Source: Shigella phage ESh36. Taken from it: a stretch of 64,000 nt of DNA. The notes beneath the pieces are model-generated. The model was not told the origin of the DNA. It did no database searches and was given only the letters and a program-made list of their open reading frames with translations. The position numbers were made by a program, and so were the translations under genes. The first letter of the stretch is position 1; each line of letters opens with the position of its first letter. Location: sequence record ON528746; one strand, given 5' to 3'. Below, piece after piece: positions 42,243-60,694 of this stretch.

Positions 42243-42270
42243 AAAAAGCCCCAACCTTTCGGTCGGGGCT
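42243..42270 (-). terminator. Strong intrinsic terminator ending the tRNA/small-RNA transcription unit
   Basis: 10-bp stem AGCCCCGACC/GGUUGGGGCU with GAAA loop, followed by UUUUU on the transcript. Confidence 0.7.
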
Positions 42271-42272
42271 AA

Positions 42273-42586
42273 GCCTTGCGGCAACCTTGTCGGGGTTCCA
42301 CCTGCTAAGGCAAGTGTTTGTACGAAACGCCGGGACTTGAACCCGGTTATTAAGTAGTTGACGCTACTCAATATTTTTAAAAGGCCATATCTCGACCATA
42401 TCCGAACGTTCCGTCAAAAACGCTACTCGGCTTACGGCAAAGATATTTCCTCGAATCGATAATTCGGTGCGCCGTTTCTGCTGTGATATAAGGGGACATT
42501 AACAAAACATAAAGATTTATTAATGCCAGTCCTTAAACAGGGAACATCAGTCCGACGACTTACCGGTAGCGACCCGGTTTCTTGTC
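42273..42586 (-). ncRNA. Candidate stable small RNA(s) between tRNA-Arg and the terminator (T4 species 1/2 position)
   Basis: No credible ORF; lies inside the tRNA operon before its terminator; contains a T-arm-like CCGGG-UUCAAGU-CCCGG element; boundaries not determined. Confidence 0.3.
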
Positions 42587-42662
42587 TGGTCGAGGCAGTA
42601 GGGATCGAACCTACGACCCAGGACTTAGAAGGTCCTTGCTCTTCCTTCTGAGCTATGCCTCG
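42587..42662 (-). tRNA. tRNA-Arg (anticodon UCU)
   Basis: Manual cloverleaf: acceptor CGAGGCA, anticodon loop CUUCUAA, T-loop GGTTCGATCC, CCA encoded. Confidence 0.85.
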
Positions 42663-58889: not shown

Positions 58890-60694
58890 TGAAACAAAAT
58901 ATTAATATCGGTAATGTTGTAGATGATGGTACCGGTGACTACCTGCGTAAAGGTGGTATAAAAATAAATGAAAACTTTGATGAACTTTATTATGAGCTTG
59001 GTGATGGGAATGTTCCATATTCAGCCGGTGCCTGGAAAACTTATAATGCTTCATCTGGGCAAACACTAACGGCAGAATGGGGGAAATCATACGCTATTAA
59101 TACTTCGTCTGGGAGAGTAACACTACAACTTCCTAAAGGAACTGTTAATGATTACAACAAGGTAATTAGAGCTAGAGACGTATTCGCTACATGGAACATC
59201 AATCCAGTTACTTTAGTAGCTGCTTCCGGAGATACAATTAAAGGGTCGTCATCGTCAGTTGAAATTAATATTCAATTTAGTGATTTGGAGCTAGTTTATT
59301 GTGCTCCAGGACGTTGGGAATATGTCAAAAATAAGCAAATTGACAAAATTACCAGTTCAGACATTAGTAATGTAGCTCGTAAAGAATTTTTAGTTGAAGT
59401 TCAAGGACAAACTGACTTTTTAGATGTTTTCAATGGAACTAGTTATAATGTTAATAACATCAGAGTAAAACACCGCGGTAATGAATTGTATTACGGCGAT
59501 GTTTTTAGCGAAAACAGTGACTTTGGCTCTCCGGGCGAAAATGAAGGCGAATTAGTTCCTCTTGATGGATTTAATATTCGATTAAGACAGCCTTGTAATA
59601 TTGGTGACACTGTTCAAATTGAAACATTTATGGATGGTGTATCACAATGGAGAAGTTCATATACAAGACGCCAAATAAAAGTACTGGATTCAAAACTAAC
59701 ATCAAAGACTTCTTTAGAAGGAAGCATTTATGTTACTGATTTATCGGCGATGAAATCAATTCCATTTTCTGCATTTGGATTAATTCCTGGTGAACCAATT
59801 AATCCGAACTCTCTTGAGGTTCGTTTTAATGGAATTTTGCAGCAGCAGGCTGGAACAGCTGGATATCCTCTGTTTTTGTGTGAAGGCGCTAATTCAGATA
59901 CGCAAGAAGGATGTATATCTCTTGGTGGCGAATGGAAAGAATCAAACACCGATTATTCTATAGAATATGAAGACGGAAAACCTATCAGTCTTTTATTTGA
60001 TAGAAAATTTGAATCCGGTGACATTATCGTTATAACATGGTTCAATAATGATTTAGGAACTCTTTTAGAAAAAGATGACATTATTGAATTAACTGATGAC
60101 CGTTATGTTAGTAAAGGATCATCTACTGAAGTTACTGGTGATGTAGCCTTAACAGATTTTGATAAAATCGGTTGGCCAAATGTTGAAAAAGTTGATTCTT
60201 ATACTAGAACGTATAATTCAATATCATCTATTTTCGATAGCATTTATCCCGTAGGTTCAATTTATGAAAATGCTATAAACCCAAATAATCCGGTGACTTA
60301 TATGGGATTTGGTTCATGGAAATTATTTGGTAAAGGACAAGTTTTAGTAGGATGGAATGATGATGTTACGGATCCAAACTTTGCTTTAAACAATAATGAT
60401 TTAGATTCTAGCGGAAATCCTTCACATACGGCAGGTGGAACGGTTGGAACAACATCAGTAACGCTTGAAAACGCAAATCTTCCTGCAACTAAAACCGACG
60501 AAAGAGTTTTAATTGAAGACGAAAATGGATCGGTTATTATTGGAGGTTGCCAATATGACCCAGATGAAACTGGTCCTATATATACAAAATATCGTGAAGA
60601 TTACGCAACAACAAACTCTTCACATACTCCTCCTGCTAATATTAGTAATATTCAACCGTCTATTACTGTATACCGTTGGATAAGGATTGCATAA
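58889..60694 (+). CDS. 10: Baseplate wedge/short-fibre attachment protein gp10
   Basis: 601 aa; size and order match T4 gp10. Confidence 0.88.

Follow-up and report, generated by a model that had tools for sequence, protein, structure and literature searches.

Orthologues of the T4 RNAs rnaD and rnaC in the tRNA operon of Shigella phage ESh36, and a covariation-backed model of a probably tRNA-shaped rnaC

What does a T4-like phage encode in the roughly 310 nucleotides (nt) between the last transfer RNA (tRNA) gene of its tRNA operon and the operon terminator? We address this for Shigella phage ESh36 in a 64,000-nt stretch of sequence record ON528746 (hereafter the window), where a first-pass annotation, made from the letters alone, had singled out positions 42273-42586 as a segment poor in open reading frames (ORFs) between tRNA-Arg and a strong terminator at 42243-42270, and had guessed at either the species 1 and 2 RNAs of T4 or a degenerate tRNA. 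The placement of that segment is right, the strand being the minus strand, and the first of the two guesses was the correct one: the interval almost certainly encodes orthologues of T4 rnaD and rnaC, located as follows.

42466-42585, minus strand: rnaD orthologue (T4 species 2 RNA), 120 nt, placed by alignment to T4
42460-42465, minus strand: spacer GAAUUA, 6 nt, from rnaD to rnaC, placed by T4 alignment
42321-42459, minus strand: rnaC orthologue (T4 species 1 RNA), 139 nt, probably tRNA-shaped, placed by T4 alignment and by covariance model R1 (166 bits)

The identification rests on colinearity and on sequence identity. T4 (NC_000866) carries the misc_RNA genes rnaD (71053-71171) and rnaC (70908-71046) directly after tRNA-Arg, with e.8 as the next gene, and the window has the two in the same order, directly past tRNA-Arg and with the same terminator at the end. 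Alignment to the T4 region, a check that the first-pass annotation had itself proposed, gave 104 identical positions out of 119 for rnaD, 136 out of 139 for rnaC and 75 out of 79 for the trailer and terminator, whereas the tRNA-Arg genes (T4 copy at L001 2674-2748) agree at only 40 of 75 positions, so that rnaC is much better conserved than the functional tRNA adjoining it. Model R1 scores the T4 copy of rnaC at 168.8 bits. Among phage records, 742 match rnaC and 734 match rnaD, the sequence of the interval being conserved in more than 700, and rnaC is 95-100% identical in 679 of its 742 records, RB69 included. More broadly, the 501 bases around the locus match 767 phage records, mostly Tequatrovirus and relatives, as expected of a T4-like phage. 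The pair is thus an already-known element whose presence in such a phage is ordinary and expected, and for that reason the locus is of modest interest as a genome feature.

The setting of the two genes within the operon is defined by three further features.

42587-42662, minus strand: tRNA-Arg(UCU), last tRNA of the 10-tRNA operon (ARAGORN; Rfam tRNA, 65.8 bits)
42271-42320, minus strand: 3' trailer from rnaC to the terminator, 50 nt, with small hairpins (T4 alignment; folding)
42243-42270, minus strand: intrinsic terminator of the tRNA operon (terminator scan)

Ten head-to-tail tRNA genes on the minus strand (43418-42587: Gln, Leu, Gly, Pro, Ser, Thr, Met, Tyr, Asn, Arg) were called by ARAGORN, nine of them confirmed by Rfam at the gathering score; tRNA-Arg has its CCA encoded, and rnaD begins after 1 nt. 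The terminator, the only one of the operon, consists of a GAAA loop on a 10-bp stem, seven of whose pairs are G-C (42270-42247), its U-run reaching 42243, and rnaD and rnaC lie upstream of it in the 3' part of the operon. Neither a sigma-70-like site nor a T4 late-promoter motif (TATAAATA) was found between tRNA-Gln and the terminator, late-promoter motifs standing instead upstream of the tRNA cluster at 44271-44264 and 44579-44572 on the minus strand. This is consistent with co-transcription of the interval with the tRNAs, as the first-pass annotation had proposed. That annotation had also seen no credible ORF, and rightly, as the transcribed strand of the interval holds only two, of 61 and 42 amino acids, both TTG-started and the longer one crossing the terminator. 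The whole 349-nt stretch folds more stably than its shuffles (z = -5.9).

Into what structure does rnaC fold? Taken alone, the window copy reaches -50.2 kcal/mol (z = -4.5 against shuffles). We compared it with homologues from T4, RB69 (Mosigvirus), several IMG/VR contigs, Karamvirus (VIPECLOM01, Pet-CM3-4, VPA32, UFV01), the unclassified SonariX, Kanagawavirus (CIP9, Q7622, KLB31), Moonvirus (KM16), Winklervirus (Kc304), Mosugukvirus (PM2), Marfavirus and a Marfa-like Klebsiella phage. From a plain MAFFT alignment of eight rnaC sequences, RNAalifold returned 44 pairs, 18 of them with compensatory changes, and a covariance model built from this alignment found 24 full-length homologues at 87-169 bits. 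The consensus over 22 distinct sequences from eight genera has 46 pairs, 93.7% paired and 30 with double changes, counts that are drawn from a model-fitted alignment and are to that extent biased towards structure. The fold is not just a product of this bias, because the independent eight-sequence RNAalifold run yields the same one; in controls, none of 500 shuffles equalled the observed values on any measure, and partners slid out of register were paired at about 40%. The elements of the model, in the order of transcription, are these.

42452-42458, minus strand: acceptor stem of rnaC, 5' strand CGAUUCG, pairing with 42329-42323 (covariation, fold)
42382-42451, minus strand: P2, a 3-bp D-stem-like helix AGG/CCU with a long three-segment hairpin (covariation, fold)
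42374-42381, minus strand: A-rich single-stranded linker UUUAAAAA (alignment, fold)
42348-42373, minus strand: P3, an anticodon-arm-like hairpin of 10 bp with the 6-nt loop CGUCAA at 42363-42358 (covariation)
42330-42346, minus strand: T arm CCGGG-UUCAAGU-CCCGG, a 5-bp stem with a 7-nt T-loop-like loop (covariation, fold)
42323-42329, minus strand: acceptor stem of rnaC, 3' strand CGUUUCG (covariation, fold)

Changes that preserve pairing are found in each of these helices. In the 7-bp acceptor stem, the third pair varies between A-U and G-C, and PM2 has U-A in place of both U.U mismatches; the D-stem-like AGG/CCU becomes UGG/CCA in the same phage; P3 has compensatory changes in 8 of its 10 pairs; and the middle pair of the T stem is G-C, U-A or A-U. 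Within P2, the long hairpin ends in the apical loop UUGACG (42417-42412) and an unpaired GG stands at 42386-42385, so that the "D loop" of the D-stem-like helix bears a roughly 60-nt inserted hairpin together with the GG. The T arm, which the first-pass annotation had picked out as a T-arm-like piece and which is indeed present at 42346-42330, begins 1 nt past P3. The 3' strand of the acceptor stem is followed by U (42322) and then ACA (42321-42319), at the site where PM2 and the Marfa-like phages encode U and CCA, which is the layout of a tRNA 3' end. We therefore consider it highly probable that rnaC folds as a tRNA-shaped four-way junction with its acceptor stem stacked on the T arm. The earlier statement that no full cloverleaf forms holds insofar as the fold is non-canonical, and fails insofar as a cloverleaf-like four-way junction does form, its 7-bp acceptor stem closing onto the T arm; a conserved structure across relatives, the lack of which would have counted against the same annotation, is present, the rnaC fold covarying over eight genera. 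Relative to T4, the window copy differs by three substitutions, two in the T loop (UUCAAGU in the window, UUCGAAU in T4) and one in the P2 hairpin, and shares with it the position after rnaD and before the same terminator as well as the fold.

Two candidate tertiary contacts may join the arms of this structure. The P2 loop UUGACG and the P3 loop CGUCAA are exact reverse complements, and the six kissing pairs that could form are 99.2% paired, their complementarity holding across eight genera; both loops are invariant though the stems that carry them are swapped for unrelated sequence in VPA32, KLB31 and PM2, and all four Marfa-like sequences have UUGGCG and CGCCAA, an A-U to G-C double change. 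The second candidate involves the GG at 42386-42385, which lies directly 5' of the CCU strand and would occupy the place of G18/G19 if AGG/CCU is a D stem. The second of these Gs (G84) and the T-loop C56 (tRNA numbering) are invariant in 29 distinct sequences, and the first (G83) is replaced by C in four Kanagawa/Winkler sequences, which are exactly those with G for the T-loop U55. Both contacts together would complete a picture in which rnaC has an acceptor/T minihelix and an elbow, with the hairpin inserted in its D loop masking the anticodon-like loop. We lean, on this comparative evidence, towards the P2-P3 kissing contact and a tRNA-elbow-like contact of GG and T loop being jointly present; the case is supported, short of proof, because each rests on one lineage.

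How closely does this architecture match RNAs that are already described? With a canonical tRNA (RF00005), rnaC shares a 7-bp acceptor stem continuous with a 5-bp/7-nt T arm, a discriminator-like U, the four-way junction, CCA in some lineages, a GG that covaries with the T loop in the manner of G18/G19, and location in tRNA arrays. It differs in its length of 139 nt, in the roughly 60-nt hairpin placed in a "D loop" where a normal D arm has a 3-4 bp stem and a 7-11-nt loop with GG (the 3-bp stem and the GG being kept), in a linker of about 9 nt replacing position 26, in having no variable region, and in an anticodon-like arm of 10 bp with a 6-nt paired loop as against a 5-bp stem with a free 7-nt loop. 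Neither ARAGORN nor the Rfam tRNA model, at gathering (29 bits) or at E<=10, called a tRNA in 42273-42586, and the tRNA model matched none of five divergent rnaC homologues. The tRNA-like domain of transfer-messenger RNA (tmRNA) also combines an acceptor/T-arm minihelix with a large non-tRNA insertion replacing the D and anticodon arms, but rnaC lacks a tag reading frame and the series of pseudoknots, and has A-U or G-C at the third acceptor position, where a G.U is the mark of tmRNA and tRNA-Ala; ARAGORN found no tmRNA and Rfam no tmRNA match. YrlA (RF02553) and mascRNA-type RNAs (RF01684) are likewise non-coding RNAs with a tRNA-like module processed by tRNA enzymes, but their architecture differs from that of rnaC, the 5' and 3' ends of YrlA forming a Ro-binding stem. 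The YrlA model (gathering 69 bits) gave hits of only 19-23 bits, on genuine tRNAs and none on rnaC or rnaD, and the mascRNA model reached 15.3 bits against a threshold of 42.5, on the T arm only. The Infernal/Rfam search that had been proposed as a check therefore names no family for either RNA: at gathering and permissive thresholds, over the window and the five divergent homologues, only chance-level scores appeared (mascRNA 15.3 bits, anti-hemB 14.3 bits).

The distribution of rnaC shows that it is not bound to its place at the end of the operon. Beyond Tequatrovirus and Mosigvirus it lies within tRNA arrays, with spacers of 2-11 nt, and occurs there alone in six genera (Karam-, Kanagawa-, Moon-, Winkler-, Mosuguk- and Marfa-type phages). 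In Karamvirus its neighbours are tRNA-Trp and tRNA-Gly, in Kanagawavirus and the Marfa-like phages it immediately follows tRNA-Met, and in Winklervirus, PM2 and one IMG/VR contig it immediately precedes tRNA-Trp. In the phages with rnaC inside tRNA arrays, rnaD was not found. The reverse case is given by Dhakavirus UP19 (L138 401-607) and phage CUA3 (L137), which keep tRNA-Arg, rnaD, trailer and terminator, with rnaC gone boundary to boundary. From mid-array rnaC without rnaD, and from Dhakavirus rnaD without rnaC, it follows that rnaC behaves as a discrete, transferable, tRNA-gene-like cassette independent of rnaD, and that the two are separable modules.

Searches for rnaC outside these genera returned nothing further. 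A similarity search of 5,426 complete E. coli genomes found no sequence like it, and thus no host or prophage counterpart. A loose pattern scan of IMG/VR (CGTCA...TAACCNGGTTC) gave at least 120 loci, with 7 genuine by covariance model among the matches listed, and of the 27 loci from a tighter scan 13 proved genuine, L009 and L077 among them; no deeper homologue appeared in the tighter scan, all genuine loci coming from the same enterobacterial T4-like genera. The rnaC model also gives weak matches to genuine tRNAs, and its weak second hits (e.g., L077 2636-2777, L154 1073-1191) are ordinary tRNAs and not paralogues. Directly upstream of the rnaC homologue of Kosakonia phage Kc304 (L134), Rfam detects at 354-425 a tRNA of 36 bits that both ARAGORN and the annotation of the record had missed.

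The companion RNA, rnaD, is built differently. In an alignment of 14 sequences its 5' ~50 nt and 3' ~25 nt are almost invariant and its central part occurs in three unrelated sequence types. All types share one fold, consisting of a 5' hairpin, a long irregular hairpin closed by GUCGUCG/CGGCG-AC, and a variable apical hairpin; the consensus is 97.2% paired, with double changes at 5 pairs. Two of these elements are placed as follows.

42562-42578, minus strand: HP1, the 5' hairpin of rnaD, ACCGG-GUCGCUA-CCGGU, a 5-bp stem with an invariant 7-nt loop (folds, alignment)
42487-42538, minus strand: variable apical hairpin of rnaD, a hairpin in all three sequence types (alignment and folds)

The closing A-U pair of HP1 is G-C in two sequences and G-U in two others. 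T4 rnaD has the same position directly past tRNA-Arg, the same overall fold and nearly identical 5' and 3' segments, and its differences from the window copy cluster in the apical hairpin, the hot spot with three sequence types. The RNA need not adjoin a tRNA, since an ORF of about 115 amino acids (hypothetical protein) stands between tRNA-Arg and rnaD in RB69 (L008 134-478), D5505 (L141 552-902) and similar phages. We picture rnaD as what is probably a structured module in its own right, its core conserved and its apical hairpin open to replacement, with a role that may concern host adaptation. The 5-bp stem and 7-nt loop of HP1 had raised the idea of a permuted or partial tRNA, which was dropped as nothing supported it. 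Two side observations concern the same segments. A "terminator-like" scan call on the plus strand at 42562-42578 is the antisense image of the 5' hairpin followed by a T-rich run, and is probably not a real terminator. Also on the plus strand, a 16-nt site at 59190-59205 is the reverse complement, with 2 mismatches, of the conserved rnaD segment GGACUGAUGUUCCCUG, which is within chance expectation.

What could these RNAs be made by, and what could they do? An acceptor/T-arm minihelix is the kind of structure recognised by ribonuclease P (RNase P) and tRNA 3'-end enzymes. On the proposed pathway, both RNAs would be excised from the transcript of the tRNA operon, with the minihelix marking rnaC for the enzymes that mature tRNAs: its 5' end would be formed by RNase P, in a cut that also frees the 3' end of rnaD, and tRNA 3'-end nucleases would strip the 50-nt trailer to give the 3' end of rnaC. 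The short spacers of 2-11 nt between tRNA genes in the other genera are as expected for such tRNA-like maturation, and older T4 work on the precursors of species 1 and 2 is said to have reported RNase P processing of the species 1 precursor. T4 rnaC and rnaD, of about 140 and 120 nt, are themselves stable late RNAs by RNA sequencing, with northern blot validation by an RNAC riboprobe, in a study that terms them small regulatory RNAs of unknown function (PMC9697503). Taken as a whole, the identity, the structure and this biogenesis very probably hold together.

Function is a far more tentative matter. Because its anticodon-like loop is of 6 nt and probably paired intramolecularly, rnaC should be unable to decode, and a masked, non-decoding loop favours a tRNA-mimic role over that of a base-pairing regulator. 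As such a mimic, rnaC might occupy a tRNA-binding factor: on the host side a nuclease or defence protein directed at tRNA, or else an enzyme of tRNA processing or modification. Phage tRNA arrays have been tied to escape from tRNA-directed defence (PMC11464382), a link that makes the decoy idea testable, yet lends it no direct support. The nearest likeness, T5 tRNA-Lys against PARIS (PMC11464382), is also a tRNA-operon product that may interact with, or evade, host tRNA-directed nucleases, but counter-defence tRNAs of this type are real decoding tRNAs replacing cleaved host tRNAs, which rnaC, presumably unable to decode, is not; the likeness is the analogy on which the decoy idea draws. A mimic or decoy function is the likeliest role for rnaC, though in itself more improbable than not. 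We hold as doubtful the fuller proposal that rnaC represents an undescribed class of phage tRNA mimics with a true acceptor/T-arm minihelix, an elbow contact and a kiss-locked anticodon-like loop, spread as a mobile cassette among enterobacterial T4-like tRNA arrays and acting as a decoy or inhibitor of a host factor that binds tRNA, for example an anticodon nuclease or another tRNA-directed defence, or by capture of an enzyme that processes or modifies tRNA.

Several points weigh against the combined reading of structure, biogenesis and function. For this phage, stable expression and the ends of the RNAs are carried over by analogy from T4, and we infer the dependence on RNase P and the exact 5' and 3' ends of rnaC. 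The window encodes ACA, not CCA, after the discriminator, and the rnaC annotated in T4 starts 1 nt upstream of the first acceptor pair and ends in UA, not CCA. Each of the two tertiary contacts comes down to a single lineage-specific co-substitution, possibly one event apiece, and in the Kanagawa/Winkler phages the T-loop consensus is mostly gone (UGCAUGC), so that strict tRNA mimicry is not universal. For rnaD, the window copy is only modestly more stable than its shuffles (z = -2.5), more weakly so for the other sequence types, and the invariance of the basal helix leaves no covariation by which to test it. Deletions spanning the tRNA region of T4 are reportedly viable on laboratory hosts. 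Reviews describe rnaC and rnaD as transcribed from the tRNA region, with biological roles unknown (PMC3014915). A 2025 study that found a convergent rnaD single-nucleotide polymorphism after a T4-like phage had evolved on a semi-permissive host still lists both as "of unknown function" (PMC12685909), and the literature that we searched, up to 2025 and exclusive of the 1970s-80s originals and the 2003 T4 genome review, gives no function beyond "unknown".

Four other explanations of the interval have to be weighed against the same evidence. The degenerate tRNA of the first-pass annotation amounts to rnaC being a decaying, functionless tRNA pseudogene, processed because acceptor and T-arm remnants persist; the silence of ARAGORN and the Rfam tRNA model in the window, the varied labels (tRNA-OTHER, tRNA-Met, tRNA-Lys) in related genomes, the 6-nt anticodon-like loop and the ACA in place of CCA would all fit it. 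A decaying gene would not be expected, however, to stay 95-100% identical in 679 of 742 records, to surpass the adjacent functional tRNA-Arg in conservation, to have 30 of its 46 pairs maintained by compensatory changes, the non-tRNA hairpins included, to keep the P2 and P3 loops complementary in eight genera, or to accumulate stably as rnaC does in T4 (PMC9697503), and we regard decay as very improbable. That the interval is instead a mere structured 3' trailer or processing signal for maturation of tRNA-Arg and termination, with the RNAs as by-products, would suit its position at the 3' end of the operon between tRNA-Arg and the terminator, as well as the trailer and rnaD remaining together where rnaC is absent. 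Against this, six genera have rnaC mid-array, far from terminators and beside different tRNAs (Trp, Gly, Met), an ORF parts tRNA-Arg from rnaD in RB69 and D5505, and whole folds are conserved rather than cleavage sites alone, all of which make the explanation improbable.

That rnaC, rnaD or both are trans-acting antisense small RNAs (sRNAs) on phage or host mRNAs, rather than tRNA mimics, is suggested by the term small regulatory RNAs in the RNA-sequencing paper (PMC9697503), by the convergent rnaD change during adaptation to a new host (PMC12685909), and by invariant, partly unpaired rnaD segments such as GGACUGAUGUUCCCUG. Yet when these conserved segments were compared with the 64-kb window, the only match besides the gene itself was the 2-mismatch site at 59190-59205, no more than shuffles give, and nearly all conserved rnaC bases are in intramolecular pairs. 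The mature RNAs also end upstream of the terminator, the T4-mapped 3' ends lying at least 50 nt before it, and so fall outside the terminator-ended type, being without the terminator hairpin and U-tail typical of Hfq-dependent sRNAs; and no rnaC-like sequence occurs in the 5,426 E. coli genomes, in a similarity search that is blind to short antisense targets. We judge the antisense explanation fairly improbable. Hardly any weight falls on the interval encoding small proteins, whether the ORFs of 61 and 42 amino acids on the transcribed strand or the hypothetical proteins that many related records annotate, as these ORFs have TTG starts, the longer crosses the terminator hairpin, substitutions are paired across helices and not codon-patterned, the centre of rnaD is swapped for unrelated sequences of different length, and the curators of T4 annotate RNAs at the locus. 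The reading that we prefer thus remains that of two RNA genes, with rnaC probably tRNA-shaped.

Beyond the two RNAs, the surrounding operon differs from that of T4. There, 8 tRNAs accompany the homing endonuclease segB; the window has 10 tRNAs, Asn, Tyr and Met-CAU among them, and lacks segB. The low identity of tRNA-Arg to its T4 counterpart, next to 87-98% for the flanking rnaD and rnaC, suggests together with the differing operon content a cassette replacement in the tRNA region. Many close relatives carry an insertion of about 555 bp just past rnaC (e.g., phage G9062, L002 2933-3509), consisting of a 474-bp ORF (hypothetical protein) between two copies of the same terminator; the window has one terminator and no such ORF, and its trailer holds a partial terminator repeat (CCCCGAC...GGUUG) that is possibly the scar of such an insertion event.

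The rnaD-rnaC pair is present in more than 700 sequenced relatives, where annotation often passes over it or takes it for a hypothetical protein or an unusual tRNA. In GenBank, MK373779, PQ898399, NC_054919 and many more label rnaC as "tRNA-OTHER (aa)", "tRNA-Met" or "tRNA-Lys", and "hypothetical protein" coding sequences are often drawn over both genes, which are likely mis-annotations; a comparative model would permit a proper RNA family for annotation and prevent them. What is added here, to two abundant RNAs that have been without known function for about fifty years, is a covariation-backed structure model for rnaC and evidence that rnaC and rnaD are separable cassettes, neither of which we met in the papers searched. 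The rnaC model gives experimental handles in its tRNA-shaped architecture, its locked anticodon-like loop, its elbow-like contact, and the gain and loss of the cassette independently of rnaD. If rnaC does act as a decoy for tRNA-directed immunity, it would broaden the case, now taking shape, for regarding phage tRNA arrays as counter-defence loci.

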